NCBI GenBank assembly: GCA_016181175.1
Contig: JACOZV010000004.1
Location: forward strand, 7,718-71,717
DNA from: Candidatus Yanofskybacteria bacterium
GTDB lineage: Bacteria > Patescibacteriota > Minisyncoccia > 2-02-FULL-40-12 > IGHO2-01-FULL-4-A
Length of the DNA stretch: 64,000 nt
Reading direction: 5' to 3'
The position numbers were made by a program, and so were the translations under genes. The stretch's first letter is position 1; the number at the start of each line of letters is the position of its first letter. Shown piece after piece: positions 1 through 3,244 of the stretch. The notes under the pieces are model-generated. The model made no database searches. It had not been told where the DNA came from and saw nothing but the letters and a program-made list of their open reading frames with translations.

Positions 1-28
1 AATTAAAAAACTAGCTCTAGCAATCCCC

Positions 29-60
29 AACCAAAAACCCCGATAACGGGGTTTTTGGTT
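29..60. terminator. Rho-independent terminator hairpin (13-bp stem aaccaaaaacccc/ggggtttttggtt, loop gataac), symmetric A/T flanks
   Basis: Perfect 13-bp inverted repeat with A-tract before and T-tract after; lies downstream of minus-strand tRNA-Trp/rpmG. Confidence 0.6.
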
Positions 61-122
61 GGGTCCTTCCTTCGCGGTCTAGAAGCGGGTTTTACCCGCC
101 GTAGCCCGCTTAGGTGGGCGAA

Positions 123-195
123 GGCGGGGGCGTCCCGACTCGAACGGGAATTGACGGTTTTGGAGACCGTAGTCCTGCCATTGAACGACGCCCCC
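123..195 (-). tRNA. tRNA-Trp (anticodon CCA)
   Basis: Reverse complement folds as cloverleaf: acceptor GGGGGCG/CGCCCCC, D-loop AATGG, anticodon loop CTCCAAA, T-arm TCCCG-TTCGAGT-CGGGA; close to E. coli tRNA-Trp. Confidence 0.85.
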
Positions 196-213
196 AAAAT
201 AGTGCTTAAGGCA

Positions 214-372
214 CTATTTTTTTGTTTCTTTGTGCATCACGTGCTTTCTGCAAAACTTGCAGAATTTCTTCATTTCGATTGTCCGCGTAACCAGTTTCTT
301 ATTTTTCGTAGAAAAATAATTGACTTGCTTGCAGATGCTGCACTTTAATTTTATTAGGTTATCTTGGGACAT
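214..372 (-). CDS. rpmG: 50S ribosomal protein L33
   Basis: 52-aa product MSQDNLIKLKCSICKQVNYFSTKNKKLVTRTIEMKKFCKFCRKHVMHKETKK with L33 Cys pairs and KETK C-terminus; ATG at 370-372; canonical tRNA-Thr/rpmG/tRNA-Trp context. Confidence 0.85.
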   Translation of the reverse strand: MSQDNLIKLKCSICKQVNYFSTKNKKLVTRTIEMKKFCKFCRKHVMHKETKK

Positions 373-390
373 ATTGTTTATTATTAACTT

Positions 391-465
391 TGGAGCCAGC
401 GGTCGGAATCGGACCGACGCTCTTTCCCTTACCATGGGAGTGCTTTACCACTAAGCTACGCTGGC
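391..465 (-). tRNA. tRNA-Thr (anticodon GGT), CCA encoded
   Basis: rc = GCCAGCG TA GCTT AGTGGTA AAGC A CTCCC ATGGTAA GGGAA AGAGC GTCGG TCCGATT CCGAC CGCTGGC T CCA. Confidence 0.85.
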
Positions 466-469
466 ATAA

Positions 470-506
470 TACCATGGAGTTGCTCTTCCACTGAGCTACA
501 ACGGCC
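470..506 (-). pseudogene. Truncated tRNA copy (5' half only: acceptor + D-arm + anticodon stem/GGT), Thr-GGT-like
   Basis: rc = GGCCGTTGTAGCTCAGTGGAAGAGCAACTCCATGGTA, then runs directly into the complete tRNA-Thr(GGT); no matching 3' half. Confidence 0.5.
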
Positions 507-523
507 TCACACCTACTTAGCTT
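503..523. repeat. Left terminal inverted repeat (21 bp, ggcctcacacctacttagctt) of GIY-YIG cassette
   Basis: Perfect reverse-complement match to 778-798. Confidence 0.7.
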
Positions 524-776
524 CAACAACACAATTCTTAATTCGCCTTTTAAGTTGCAGGTATGCGTTTCCTCTCAATTTTATACTATATTCTCTATGC
601 TTGGCATCTCCTTGCGAATAATAACTTTCATAGTATATCAGCCACCAAGGAATATTCAACTTTGTGGCTTTAACCAAACCAAAATTGTGTTGTTGGAATC
701 TTAACGTAAGATCGTGGGTATAGCCAAAGTATAATTGGCCATCTTTTTTACTTTTCAAAACATAAAAATAATACAT
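513..776 (-). CDS. GIY-YIG nuclease superfamily protein (UPF0213/YhbQ-like, ~87 aa)
   Basis: MYYFYVLKSKKDGQLYFGYTHDLTLRFQQHN...REYSIK matches the GIY-YIG domain (YVYIL...DGSLYIGYT.DL.RR..EHN...RE..IK); ATG at 774-776; ORF-finder TTG start lies inside the inverted repeat. Confidence 0.75.
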   Translation of the reverse strand: MYYFYVLKSKKDGQLYFGYTHDLTLRFQQHNFGLVKATKLNIPWWLIYYESYYSQGDAKHREYSIKLRGNAYLQLKRRIKNCVVEAK

Positions 777-777
777 A

Positions 778-798
778 AAGCTAAGTAGGTGTGAGGCC
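778..798. repeat. Right terminal inverted repeat (21 bp) of GIY-YIG cassette
   Basis: Perfect reverse complement of 503-523. Confidence 0.7.
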
Positions 799-838
799 AA
801 CGGCCTTTTTTATCAACATTTTTTAACTTTATTTTTAT

Positions 839-853
839 TCTGTGGGGGCGGTA
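839..853. repeat. 15-bp direct repeat ctgtgggggcggtag (copy 1), identical to the 3' end of tRNA-Tyr
   Basis: Exact copy of 1040-1054 (the tRNA-Tyr acceptor/T-arm 3' end on the minus strand). Confidence 0.7.
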
Positions 854-1039
854 GCGTTGAAAACCAACTGCTTGGTTTTCAACGGGAATTTTAGCTTTGC
901 CTTGTGCGAATAGCACGGCAAAGCGTTATAAAAATTCCCATGCACCGTATTCGCTAAAAGCGAACTTGATGCAAATCTGCTGCTTCGCAGCAAGTCCAGA
1001 AACATAATCGCCGTAGGTAGTTATGTTTCTGGACTCTAT
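854..1039. ncRNA. Hairpin-dense 186-bp element (candidate structured RNA or miniature inserted element); strand undetermined
   Basis: Consecutive perfect stems: 13 bp (CGTTGAAAACCAA/TTGGTTTTCAACG), nested GGAATTTT...AAAATTCC with inner GCTTTGCC/GGCAAAGC and GTGC/GCAC, TTCGC/GCGAA, TGCTGC/GCAGCA, 13 bp TCCAGAAACATAA/TTATGTTTCTGGA; no ORF. Confidence 0.35.
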
Positions 1040-1054
1040 CTGTGGGGGCGGTAG
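1040..1054. repeat. 15-bp direct repeat copy 2 (native 3' end of tRNA-Tyr)
   Basis: Identical to 839-853. Confidence 0.7.
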
Positions 1055-1126
1055 GATTTGCACCTACGTAGGCACAAGGCCAGCAGATTTACAGTCTGCC
1101 CTCGTTGACTGCTTGAGTACACCCCC
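1043..1126 (-). tRNA. tRNA-Tyr (anticodon GTA), long variable arm
   Basis: rc = GGGGGTG TA CTC AAGCAGTCAAC GAG G GCAGA CTGTAAA TCTGC TGGCCTTGTGCC (variable hairpin) GTAGG TGCAAAT CCTAC CGCCCCC A. Confidence 0.8.
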
Positions 1127-1142
1127 TATTTTGGCCAACCGA

Positions 1143-1217
1143 TGGAGCCGACCCCGAGATTCGAACTCGGAACCTACGCTTTACAAAAGCGTTGCTCTGC
1201 CGTTGAGCTAGATCGGC
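1143..1217 (-). tRNA. tRNA-Thr (anticodon TGT), CCA encoded
   Basis: rc = GCCGATC TA GCTC AACGGCA GAGC A ACGCT TTTGTAA AGCGT AGGTT CCGAG TTCGAAT CTCGG GGTCGGC T CCA. Confidence 0.85.
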
Positions 1218-1822
1218 AACTTTTCCAATTTTTTTAAGAGTCGTGTGAGTTTGTTCCGAGTTGTTTCGTCCTCCGGATCAAGTTCTGCGGCTTTTTTAAA
1301 AGACTCAACTGCATCGTGCCACTCCTCCATTTTCATATATATATTGCCTAATTTTTTATAAAGCCCAGCGTCCTTTGGATTTGTTGCTATTTCAAGAATC
1401 AACTTATGTTCTTGCTCTTCTAAATCTACTCCCCTGCCACTGTCGCTACTAATCCTGACTTCTTGTTCGGCCTGGGCGGCCGCTTCGCTACTTATCACGC
1501 TCTCGTGATGCATCACTGATTTGCGAACCCTATTGATTAACCGATTGGTGACCGCGTCAAGTTTTAGCGAAAATAGTCTTAATTTCCTCAAAAATTTTTC
1601 AAATTCAGCAAGAAAATTAAGACGATATTGCCTTAAATCTACTTTCTGAATATAGGCAGTGGGCACCGGAAAAAATTCAGCCCAAAAACCAGACTGTTCC
1701 GGCACAACACTCTCAACCACTTCGGGGGTAAGTTTTTTAAGATAAACGAACTTTCGGCTTATAATCCAGCCGATAGAGACTATAGAGAAAATAAAAATAC
1801 CAAATGGAATGAAAAAAAACAT
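1208..1822 (-). CDS. Membrane-anchored protein with C-terminal TPR-like repeats (hypothetical)
   Basis: N-terminal TM (MFFFIPFGIFIFSIVSIGWII), C-terminal KLGNIYMKMEEWHDAVESFKKAAELDPED TPR motif; stop overlaps tRNA-Thr(TGT) by ~10 nt. Confidence 0.55.
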   Translation of the reverse strand: MFFFIPFGIFIFSIVSIGWIISRKFVYLKKLTPEVVESVVPEQSGFWAEFFPVPTAYIQKVDLRQYRLNFLAEFEKFLRKLRLFSLKLDAVTNRLINRVRKSVMHHESVISSEAAAQAEQEVRISSDSGRGVDLEEQEHKLILEIATNPKDAGLYKKLGNIYMKMEEWHDAVESFKKAAELDPEDETTRNKLTRLLKKLEKLPI

Positions 1823-1824
1823 GT

Positions 1825-2274
1825 TTAGAGTTGCAGTCGGCAAAACTTACCTATCTTTATGTTCTCCCCGAGTTTAGCTATATATTGAGTTATCAATTCT
1901 TCAACGGTAACATCTTGATCGCGAATATATGGCTGGCTTAAAAGCTCGGGGCCGTCTTGCGGATCCATTGCCGCAACCTGCATCGCCACCTCGTGGGCCA
2001 GTTCACTGAACATGGGATTTCGCGCCACAAAATCCGTTTCGCACAAAAGTTCCAACAATACACCCACTTTTTTGTTGGAATGAATATAGGCCTCAACTAA
2101 TCCTTGTCCGGTAGTACGCAATGCCTTTTTTTCAGCCACCTTAACGCCATGTGCCTTTAATACCTCCAAAGCTCGCGCCTTATCCCCGCCGGATTCATCC
2201 AGAGCTTTTTTTATCTCGTTAAAAGACAGGCCTGTTGAATCACGAAGTTCTTTTAATAGTTCTACATGGGACAT
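1825..2274 (-). CDS. tsf: Elongation factor Ts (short form)
   Basis: N-terminal UBA-like LLKELRDSTGLSFNEIKKALDESGGDKARALEVLKAHG; immediately downstream of rpsB. Confidence 0.8.
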   Translation of the reverse strand: MSHVELLKELRDSTGLSFNEIKKALDESGGDKARALEVLKAHGVKVAEKKALRTTGQGLVEAYIHSNKKVGVLLELLCETDFVARNPMFSELAHEVAMQVAAMDPQDGPELLSQPYIRDQDVTVEELITQYIAKLGENIKIGKFCRLQL

Positions 2275-2289
2275 ACATAATTGGGTTAA

Positions 2290-2988
2290 TTAAGGATTAG
2301 TGACGCCCTTGCATATTGCTTCCAATATGAGTTCTACTGATTTCTTGGAATTGTCGTTGGCCCCGATAGGATAATCGATCAGTTTGGGGTCACTATCGGT
2401 ATTAACTATGCCAACGACTTTAACACCTGCTCTTTTGGCTTCATGAACTGGCAATTGGCTCTCCTTAAGCGAGGTAATAAAAATTATGTCGGGAATACGT
2501 GACAGTTTGCGGATACCGCCGAATTTCAACTTCAGGCCTGCGATTTCTTTTTCTTTTAACACCTTTTCTTTTTTAGTAAACTTGTCAAAACCGCCTTCGG
2601 CTTGTTTTTTTTCAAGTTCTTCCAAATATTTAATCCTACCGGTAATTGTTTTGAAATTTGTCAAAGTGCCCCCAAGCCAGCGGTTGATTACATACGGCAT
2701 ACCCAATGTCTCGGCTGTTGTTTTAATCGAGTCGGCAGATTGTTTGGTCAAACCAACAAATAAAATCATCTTGCTTTCTGCCATGGCTTTCTTTAAAAAA
2801 TCCACCGCCTTAACGAGCGAATCTGTTGTTTTGATCAAATCTAATATATAGATATTATCTTTCAGGGTATAGATGTACGGTTTCATGTTTGGGTGGAAAA
2901 TCGTCTTCTTGCGCCCAAAATGCATCCCCGCCCTTACCATATCCTCATAGGCCGGCAAAAAACTGATTGTATTGTTTACTTCAGGCAT
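2290..2988 (-). CDS. rpsB: 30S ribosomal protein S2
   Basis: MVRAGMHFGRKKTIFHPNMKPYIY...ILFVGLTKQS...INRWLGGTLTNFKTI matches S2; start likely MPEVNN. Confidence 0.85.
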   Translation of the reverse strand: MPEVNNTISFLPAYEDMVRAGMHFGRKKTIFHPNMKPYIYTLKDNIYILDLIKTTDSLVKAVDFLKKAMAESKMILFVGLTKQSADSIKTTAETLGMPYVINRWLGGTLTNFKTITGRIKYLEELEKKQAEGGFDKFTKKEKVLKEKEIAGLKLKFGGIRKLSRIPDIIFITSLKESQLPVHEAKRAGVKVVGIVNTDSDPKLIDYPIGANDNSKKSVELILEAICKGVTNP

Positions 2989-3244
2989 GCTGAAAATAAT
3001 AACAAAAAAATTGGGGATATGCAACACAGCACTCGCCACCCACAAAAATTACAAACTTAATTAGCAATAGGATTTATCTACCGGCTCCGCGCGCGCGTTT
3101 TGCTGGCCGCTACGCGAACAGGCACAAAACCCACGCGCCTTCACCGGAAAACCCGTCGGACTAGCACTTTGTCTTAGAAATTTACGACCGATAAAAACTG
3201 CCGATTGGTATCGGCTTGGGGTTTGTAATCTTTGATGAAAAACA

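Follow-up and report, generated by a model that had tools for sequence, protein, structure and literature searches.

A compact GIY-YIG nuclease cassette with inverted ends, probably a mobile element of Patescibacteria that inserts at the first bases of tRNA genes

The 64,000-nucleotide (nt) stretch of Candidatus Yanofskybacteria contig JACOZV010000004.1 analysed here (referred to as the window) contains, within a cluster of tRNA genes, a unit of 296 bp in which a single open reading frame (ORF) for an 87-amino-acid (aa) GIY-YIG nuclease is enclosed by inverted repeats. This unit is probably one intact copy of a compact DNA element that is mobile and widespread among the ultra-small bacteria of the candidate phyla radiation (CPR)/Patescibacteria, with ends of ~20 bp, one ORF for an 87-aa nuclease and a target duplication of 4–5 bp. 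Comparison with related loci shows what is evidently a repeat-bounded, duplication-flanked coding unit that was inserted at many places, mostly at the first bases of tRNA genes, while leaving the tRNA intact.

Inverted ends and target duplication of the window copy

A preliminary description of this DNA had reported a perfect 21-bp inverted repeat, situated between tRNA-Tyr and tRNA-Thr(GGT), and both points hold. A repeat finder returned two arms of 21 nt (503-523 and 778-798; 100% complementary, 254 nt apart), and the arm is unique to its two places in the window (≤3 mismatches allowed) and matched in 0 of 100 shuffles. The unit is flanked by tRNA-Tyr (1126-1042) and tRNA-Thr(GGT) (465-391), all on the minus strand, and its parts are, in the order of transcription:

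798..802, minus strand: upstream copy of the 5-bp target duplication CGTTG, which together with 803-804 makes the 7-nt GCCGTTG
778..798, minus strand: left (upstream) inverted end, with the minus-strand reading GGCCTCACACCTACTTAGCTT, stopping 1 nt short of the ATG
513..776, minus strand: GIY-YIG nuclease ORF of the minimal UPF0213/YhbQ/Slx1 type, ATG start, 87 aa (MYYFYVLKSKKDGQLYFGYTHDL...KNCVVEAK) plus stop
503..523, minus strand: right (downstream) inverted end, AAGCTAAGTAGGTGTGAGGCC, holding the last three codons and the TAG stop
470..505, minus strand: dead 5′ exon of tRNA-Thr(GGU), GCCGTTGTAGCTCAGTGGAAGAGCAACTCCATGGTA, from the acceptor strand to the anticodon loop, directly 3′ of the cassette
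499..503, minus strand: downstream copy of the target duplication CGTTG, forming nt 3–7 of the tRNA fragment

The symmetric terminal repeat proper spans 778-797 on the left, where base 798 is part of the target duplication, and 504-523 on the right, where the final two bases (GC) double as nt 1–2 of the tRNA fragment. Expressed as a motif, the element (~290 bp) has the ends CTCACACCTA...TAGGTGTGAG, and its terminal inverted repeat starts with (S)CCTCACACCTACT.... The repeats had been described as overlapping both ends of the ORF, which is correct for the arm at 503-523 but not for the arm at 778-798, since the latter ends 1 nt before the ATG and would reach into the ORF only with the TTG at 800, further upstream, as start codon.

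Two features directly outside the arms had been overlooked. First, the upstream arm is flanked on its outer side by a repeat of 5–7 nt of a tRNA start (798-804); GCCGTTG is here a copy of the tRNA-Thr 5′ acceptor strand and takes the position at which tRNA-Thr(GGT) starts in the cassette-free relative L101. Second, a tRNA-Thr(GGU) 5′ fragment lies directly 3′ of the cassette.

Recurrence, target sites and derivatives

For comparison, 97 related loci (numbered with the prefix L) were gathered via exact-protein look-ups, species genomes and metagenomes, the locus scan relying on a narrow protein alignment. About 30 distinct loci form a close clade (63–90% protein identity), in which arms of 19–24 nt with 0–1 mismatch occur in the same register as in the window: the left arm stops 1–8 nt before the ATG, and the right arm consists of the last 10 nt of the ORF plus 9–10 nt. 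The outer 12 nt of the arms (CTCACACCTACT) are essentially invariant, with the synonymous sites of the ORF being near saturation (pS about 0.8), and the inner 8 nt covary on both sides, the right-side copy encoding variable C-terminal residues. In an alignment of 20 arm sequences, 97.3% of the cells are paired and double changes occur at 8 of the 20 pairs (31 cells), a level reached by none of 500 shuffles and nowhere near approached by slid controls. G-U pairs make up 3 of the 400 cells, and mismatches are too few for a G-U versus A-C asymmetry to tell RNA-level from DNA-level selection. Moreover, the arms are identical in the window and in L003/L018 despite an ORF synonymous divergence of 0.5–0.75. 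Because the outer arm sequence is invariant and the ends are kept in copies that lack the ORF (see below), these comparisons point to a likely DNA-level role of the ends.

The preliminary description had named a long-range RNA stem as the simpler explanation in case the repeat proved unique and relatives carried the same gene at the same place without it. The opposite was found: L001, L003 and L018, in which the gene is at the same place, keep an identical repeat, and a covarying repeat with short target duplications is kept where relatives lie at other tRNA genes or at non-tRNA sites. No description of such an element was found in the literature searched, which was incomplete.

At 21 distinct loci of the close clade, a tRNA gene starts exactly 7 nt 3′ of the stop codon, its first 2–5 nt lying in the right arm. 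These tRNAs are Glu(CTC), Glu(TTC), Arg(TCG), Arg(GCG) and Thr(GGT); in L015, tRNA-Val(CAC) starts 1 nt after the stop. The upstream neighbours of the units are unrelated to each other, and include type IV secretion system pilins, an IS110-type transposase and an HD-domain gene, among others. Direct repeats of 4–5 bp flank the symmetric arms at at least a dozen different sites:

CGTTG: tRNA-Thr sites (window and L001 group), flanking the symmetric arms
CGCCA, CCCCA, CCCTA and CCCCG: tRNA-Glu sites
CCCTG and CCTCG: tRNA-Arg sites
GGTTA: tRNA-Val site
CATAA (L017), TACA (L005) and TTGA (L014): non-tRNA sites
CCCG: 3′ end of tRNA-Trp (L042 and L052)

At the tRNA 5′ sites, nt 3–7 are duplicated and nt 1–2(5) are replaced by the bases GG, GC or GGGGC at the tip of the right arm; since these arm-end bases stand in for the first bases of the tRNA, an intact tRNA gene is regenerated. 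The upstream copy exactly matches the local tRNA in about 19 of 26 cases, comprising at least seven different acceptor sequences, and differs by 1–2 nt in the others. At all of about eight independent sites, ORF and tRNA point in the same direction, although either orientation would be possible with symmetric ends.

It had been proposed to compare the orthologous tRNA cluster of relatives, and the cassette is indeed absent there from L101 and L104, both close relatives of the window organism. In L101 (GCA_016185545.1; EF-Ts 83% identical to that of the window), the order is tRNA-Thr(TGT), tRNA-Tyr, a non-coding insert, a spacer, tRNA-Thr(GGT), rpmG and tRNA-Trp, without the GIY-YIG gene; its spacer (...CCGCCCCCACCGAATAAAAATTAAAAAATAATTTTTAACTAAATAG) passes directly into the tRNA, whereas the homologous spacer of the window passes into GCCGTTG and the cassette. 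In L104 (EF-Ts 86% identical), tRNA-Tyr and a small ORF are followed by a window-like tRNA-Thr(GGT) of the GCCAGCG type, again without the cassette. The upstream flank of L104 recurs in L001/L018, of which the nuclease is 87–90% identical to that of the window, and consists of the small ORF and AAAAGAAAATTAAAAAAGAA...AAATAG; in L001/L018 it is followed by GCCGTTG, the cassette and the tRNA. Since MAFFT misplaced the large gap in alignments of empty and filled sites, the left flanks were compared by eye. The expectation that related genomes would carry tRNA-Gly or tuf here was not borne out, as the closest relatives (L101, L104 and L042) have neither at this position.

Derivatives lacking the ORF were found at the following loci:

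L016/L047/L048: ORF-less unit with 19-nt arms and a 23-nt loop, just 5′ of tRNA-Glu and behind a unit with a frameshifted ORF
L042, 2471-2583: ORF-less unit 3′ of tRNA-Trp, inside which lies a 28-nt palindrome of a related end
L052: ORF-less unit of ~135 bp 3′ of tRNA-Trp, followed by a full unit

The palindrome nested in the L042 unit (2519-2546; CCCCCACACCTATGCATAGGTGTGGGGG) is perfect, corresponds to two abutting L017-type ends, and may be a minimal derivative. Tandem units with a single shared copy of the duplication occur in L002, L004, L052 and L085, as repeated insertion into a regenerated target would be expected to produce. Two units per contig are present in L015, L022, L042 and L052, and the frameshifted copy of L016 is a decayed one. 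The protein tree interleaves the targets, with Thr appearing twice and Arg three times.

The suggestion that the window unit is a MITE-like (i.e., miniature inverted-repeat transposable element-like) or homing cassette is therefore supported. Its mobility is supported by the repeats, duplications, ORF-less copies and empty sites of the relatives, but the window copy itself is no MITE: its ORF is intact and under selection, and it is the ORF-less relatives in L016, L042 and L052 that fit this definition. Terminal inverted repeats conserved across copies and short target duplications at independent sites are those of a transposon of the terminal-inverted-repeat type, yet the sole ORF encodes a GIY-YIG nuclease instead of a transposase of a known class. 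The window copy is an ORF-bearing and apparently autonomous unit.

The tRNA fragment directly 3′ of the window cassette bears on the history of this copy. It differs by one mismatch from the 5′ exon of the tRNA-Thr(GGU) of L001/L018, on which the cassette sits as well and which is split after the anticodon by a group I-like intron of ~300 nt (L001 751-1050, L018 587-878). This insert gave a full-length match to Rfam RF00028 of 23–28 bits, below the gathering threshold, and the interrupted tRNA was not called by ARAGORN in L001/L018. The fragment ends where this intron starts; in the window, the 5′ exon was kept, while the intron and the 3′ exon are gone, so that ...CCATGGTA is followed by TTAT and then by an intact tRNA-Thr(GGT) of the L104 type. 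The fragment sits only 4 nt upstream of this intact gene and is missed by gene finders. A split or intron-containing tRNA that would use fragment 505-470 was rejected: no 3′ half lies downstream, where rpmG follows the intact tRNA-Thr, and the fragment is therefore a pseudogene. Either the cassette may have arrived with 35 nt of its former target, or an intron-type gene may have been truncated and replaced in function by an intron-less gene. The combination of cassette, tRNA 5′ fragment and intact tRNA with the matching anticodon also occurs in L010 and L064.

The nuclease, its proposed action and competing explanations

The ORF had been assigned to the YhbQ/UPF0213 type of GIY-YIG proteins, and this assignment is confirmed by a match to Pfam PF01541 (E = 2.7e-11; 44.1 bits versus a cut-off of 22.6) and by the nearest solved structures. 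Residues Y16, G18, R26, H30 and E62 are invariant among 30 homologues, and Y5 is nearly so, as in proteins of the GIY-YIG superfamily. A sequence search of the PDB returned the UPF0213 proteins 1zg2 (E = 1.6e-4) and 1ywl as nearest. The AlphaFold model (pLDDT 92.7) consists of a beta-beta-alpha-beta-alpha core and a C-terminal basic helix; Foldseek placed it nearest to UPF0213 protein BH0048 and then to Slx1 nuclease domains (TMq 0.62–0.67, root mean square deviation 1.2–3 Å, 25–30% identity), with I-TevI matching at a TMq of just 0.47. The protein thus belongs to the UPF0213/YhbQ-Slx1 branch as a minimal stand-alone domain, rather than to the UvrC/I-TevI branch. It is under purifying selection (dN/dS of 0.10–0.13 versus its nearest relatives; median pN/pS of 0.22 over 298 pairs), and its 107 relatives in a database clustered at 90% are nearly all 84–87 aa long and from CPR bacteria. 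The UPF0213/YhbQ branch at large comprises about 4,000 clusters at 50% identity.

An exact-sequence look-up of the window nuclease (87-aa and 95-aa versions) and of the ribosomal protein L33 found no record. The EF-Ts of the window is 100% identical to a protein recorded for Candidatus Yanofskybacteria. A phage or viral origin was rejected, as no close relative was found in the IMG/VR viral collections and phage records gave matches of at most 36–41% identity. An intron-encoded homing endonuclease of the group I kind was rejected likewise, as no intron model matched window 1-3000; the intron-like insert of L001/L018 is a separate feature, downstream of the cassette. Finally, an enclosing repeat is no general trait of YhbQ proteins, as the yhbQ gene of E. 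coli (29% protein identity to the window nuclease) has neither an enclosing inverted repeat nor a tRNA neighbour.

More distant relatives (33–48% identity) keep the link with tRNA genes in a different layout. At 12 such loci, involving 10 tRNA species (L055, L057, L058, L063, L075, L084, L087, L088, L090, L091, L093 and L095), a copy of the tRNA 5′ part (10–50 nt) precedes the ORF and an intact tRNA follows it. A G+C-rich hairpin, often CC(C/T)GCCTGCC...GGCAGGCGGG and without target duplication, cleanly splits this tRNA copy within its D loop or anticodon loop, and the last codons of the ORF sometimes lie within the downstream tRNA (overlapping nt 1–23). In the protein tree, the repeat-enclosed clade is nested inside this larger distant group.

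We infer the chemistry of transposition as follows. The element would insert preferentially into the first nucleotides of tRNA genes, the complete tRNA being rebuilt 7 nt after the stop codon, and would thereby come to lie in the 5′ leader that is removed by RNase P, which would then release the tRNA. The nuclease would be the element's own mobility enzyme, acting on the inverted ends or their hairpin/cruciform, and would make a 4–5-nt staggered break in the target and/or free the element at its ends, after which host repair or ligation would complete the insertion. Since the ORF is always co-oriented with the tRNA, it would be promoterless and expressed by read-through from the tRNA promoter; a promoter scan of the unit gave weak consensus matches at most, with predicted starts inside the ORF. 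The 21-bp stem in the transcript lies directly against the ATG and includes the stop codon; it should therefore hold back the translation of such read-through transcripts, and may occlude the start region and keep nuclease expression low. A bolder version of this proposal is possible, albeit doubtful: at ~290 bp, the unit would then be smaller than any autonomous transposable element seen so far, and would be the first with a minimal Slx1-like GIY-YIG nuclease as sole enzyme, with a hairpin- or cruciform-dependent cut at the ends and a 4–5-nt staggered cut at the end of the tRNA acceptor stem, and the distant hairpin-decoy relatives would represent a second mode of the same strategy.

Several points weigh against a mobile element of this kind. 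We know of no enzyme of the GIY-YIG class that catalyses transposition, and a GIY-YIG nuclease cannot religate DNA alone. Only one copy is present in the 64-kb window, and a scan of 185,579 species genomes gave one locus per genome, whereas insertion sequences are typically multi-copy. No allele-matched empty site was found among the relatives examined, since the empty ones carry other tRNA-Thr alleles. The distant relatives mostly lack an enclosing repeat, and perfect complementarity at a constant length of ~21 bp would also fit an RNA stem of the RNase III type. Furthermore, the boundary at tRNA sites is ambiguous, as a 5-bp duplication with symmetric ends and a 7–12-nt acceptor-strand duplication with asymmetric ends both fit; here, the former is favoured, because the non-tRNA sites show 4–5-bp duplications of their own. 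Lastly, the upstream copies that deviate by 1–2 nt from the tRNA (L011, L013, L020, L023/24, L029 and L042) would also be explained by homing or recombination that carried the copy along.

Homing indeed provides an alternative for the whole unit, although we consider it unlikely. The unit would then be a free-standing homing-endonuclease cassette, of which the nuclease cuts cassette-free tRNA genes, with a cassette-bearing allele as template for the repair of the break; the homology arms would be provided by the upstream tRNA-derived copy and the downstream tRNA, the inverted repeat would mainly be an RNA-level device (for translation control or protection of the mRNA 3′ end), and the duplications would be inherited from rare founding insertions. 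Such a cassette would account for the single copy per genome, for targets that are highly conserved genes, for upstream acceptor copies that look carried along, for the foreign 35-nt tRNA-Thr exon at the window copy, and for most Glu-targeting elements forming one protein clade. The 10–50-nt upstream tRNA copies and intact downstream tRNAs of the distant relatives would be a plausible pair of homology arms, and an HNH gene in L104 has a similar layout (i.e., degenerate tRNA piece, ORF and intact tRNA). However, in the close clade the left homology arm would measure just 5–8 nt, and there would be no immunity, because the regenerated tRNA would remain a target. The protein also lacks a DNA-binding domain and is nearer to Slx1 than to the I-TevI/Seg enzymes, insertions at sites other than tRNA genes and at the 3′ end of tRNA-Trp come with 4–5-bp duplications of their own, and ORF-less and nested copies keep paired ends with no ORF left to regulate.

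A second alternative, which appears very improbable, is an ordinary, non-mobile host gene for a small tRNA-associated nuclease, co-transcribed with the tRNA, in which the repeat would form a long-range stem for RNA processing, akin to the RNase III stems around rRNAs, by which the mRNA is released or silenced. The stem of both arms is present in the minimum-free-energy fold of the region (z = –11), its pairing is maintained by compensatory changes at a constant length of 20–21 bp, and the shared orientation of ORF and tRNA would suit this explanation too. In addition, a 2006 survey of the GIY-YIG superfamily noted a prokaryotic Slx1-like domain fused to a tRNA methyltransferase, proposed a connection with RNA metabolism, and listed prokaryotic stand-alone Slx1-like proteins as a minimal domain form without auxiliary domain or assigned function (PMC1564403). 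Against this stand the scarcity of G-U pairs, the E. coli gene that lacks both repeat and tRNA neighbour, the absence of the gene from the locus in close relatives, and its occurrence in front of at least six tRNA species and also at non-tRNA sites, the upstream neighbours being unrelated. Target duplications, tandem arrays, and ORF-less and decayed copies are hallmarks of selfish elements, and these empty sites and element-like debris make a purely host-side RNA processing stem unlikely. Of the two forms of mobility, transposition is, judged by sequence, probable and homing less so, and the repeat of the presumed mobile element may have an extra role as RNA stem alongside its DNA role.

Relation to known systems and significance

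With UPF0213/YhbQ proteins and the Slx1 domain, the window protein has the fold and motifs in common, as well as the lack of an auxiliary domain. Slx1 is a structure-selective nuclease that acts on branched DNA with its partner Slx4, whereas a cassette bounded by repeats has the window-type protein as its only product; to our knowledge, YhbQ-type genes are not known as mobile. The Seg family of phage T4 likewise comprises selfish GIY-YIG genes (e.g., SegB, between the genes of a tRNA cluster), which presumably spread at the DNA level. The Seg and I-TevI enzymes measure about 200–250 aa and have a DNA-binding domain, and we know of no terminal inverted repeats or target duplications around their genes. 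In contrast, the window protein has 87 aa, and its model shows the core and one C-terminal helix, with no C-terminal DNA-binding part of the Seg/I-TevI type. SegB is mentioned in PMC13096335.

Insertion sequences and MITEs resemble the CPR element in having terminal inverted repeats of ~20 bp, short target duplications, ORF-less derivatives, insertions that are nested or in tandem, and sites that are empty in some relatives and filled in others. Unlike insertion sequences, the CPR element has no DDE, HUH, serine or tyrosine transposase, and its orientation bias and preference for tRNA ends are strict. We know of no autonomous insertion sequence near ~290 bp, the known ones being far larger.

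Inserters that restore tRNA genes include integrase-type islands at tRNA 3′ ends, the eukaryotic Dada transposons in tRNA and small nuclear RNA genes, and GIY-YIG ORFs of fungal mitochondria, which supply a replacement for the gene terminus. They share with the CPR element a conserved RNA gene as target, the regeneration of a complete gene, and a short duplicated or displaced piece that is left behind; the CPR element differs by restoring the 5′ end with 2–5 nt of its own end plus a 4–5-bp duplication, and by having no integrase or DDE enzyme. Complementary sequences also flank a transcribed unit in the RNase III stems around rRNA and in the fold-back inhibition of IS10 transposase. In the CPR element this pairing covaries and, as in IS10, a stem over the translation start could limit read-through expression; unlike these stems, its outer 12 nt are invariant, the stop codon lies in the stem and ORF-less copies keep the stem.

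If the 87-aa nuclease is truly the mobility enzyme, the element would represent a new enzymatic class of prokaryotic transposable elements and a new lower size limit for an autonomous one, and would provide the first concrete biological context for the large and obscure UPF0213/YhbQ branch. By inserting into the first nucleotides of a tRNA gene and rebuilding them from its own end, the element makes use of a 'safe harbour'. In reduced CPR genomes, tRNA clusters are moreover hot spots at which tiny insertions of several kinds accumulate: besides the GIY-YIG cassette, these are group I introns, a cassette with an HNH gene, and a non-coding element at the 3′ ends of tRNAs. Tool developers, too, could take an interest in a small, structure-guided nuclease that has defined ends.

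Neighbouring genes and other small insertions

Every gene in window 1-1300 lies on the minus strand, where the surroundings of the cassette are, in the order of transcription:

1217-1143, minus strand: tRNA-Thr(TGT), first in the order
1126-1042, minus strand: tRNA-Tyr, second in the order
1038-855, minus strand: structured non-coding stretch 3′ of tRNA-Tyr, followed by a short A+T-rich spacer and the cassette
505-470, minus strand: the tRNA fragment directly 3′ of the cassette
391..465, minus strand: resident intact tRNA-Thr(GGT) of the GCCAGCG type, with an identical allele in the cassette-free relative L104
375-214, minus strand: rpmG, 3′ of the intact tRNA-Thr(GGT)
195-123, minus strand: tRNA-Trp, last in the order

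The structured non-coding stretch belongs to a group of inserts of 130–185 nt that lie directly 3′ of a tRNA (Tyr or Thr) and are bounded by a 16–19-nt direct repeat of the tRNA 3′ end:

855-1038 of the window, minus strand: insert with direct repeats at 839-854 and 1039-1054
L101 4813-4945, L042 1842-1970 and L022 2066-2102: further copies

The inserts of L101 and L042 carry an antisense copy of the tRNA T-arm and two GC-rich hairpins with GGCGAGC motifs, and that of the window has a 13-nt antisense match to the anticodon arm of tRNA-Tyr (970-982 versus 1081-1093). No Rfam model matched the insert, and the relative L104 lacks it; it resembles a small element of a second kind, one that would target tRNA 3′ ends.

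The HNH locus of L104 (4563-5045) consists of an HNH endonuclease ORF (43 + 82 aa as called) between a degenerate 5′ piece of tRNA-Thr and an intact tRNA-Thr(TGT), the degenerate piece adjoining a hairpin with GCCGACC in its loop. Its layout, in which a nuclease gene lies between a broken tRNA copy and an intact tRNA, is that of the GIY-YIG cassettes, with another nuclease family.

Upstream in the window, an ORF for a tetratricopeptide repeat (TPR) protein (1843-1208) shares the first 10 nt of tRNA-Thr(TGT) (1217-1143; overlap 1208-1217), and this tight junction is also present in L101 and L098. In L101, a Y1 (IS200/IS605-type) transposase gene (1927-2589) lies just 5′ of rpsB and is absent at the corresponding place in the window.

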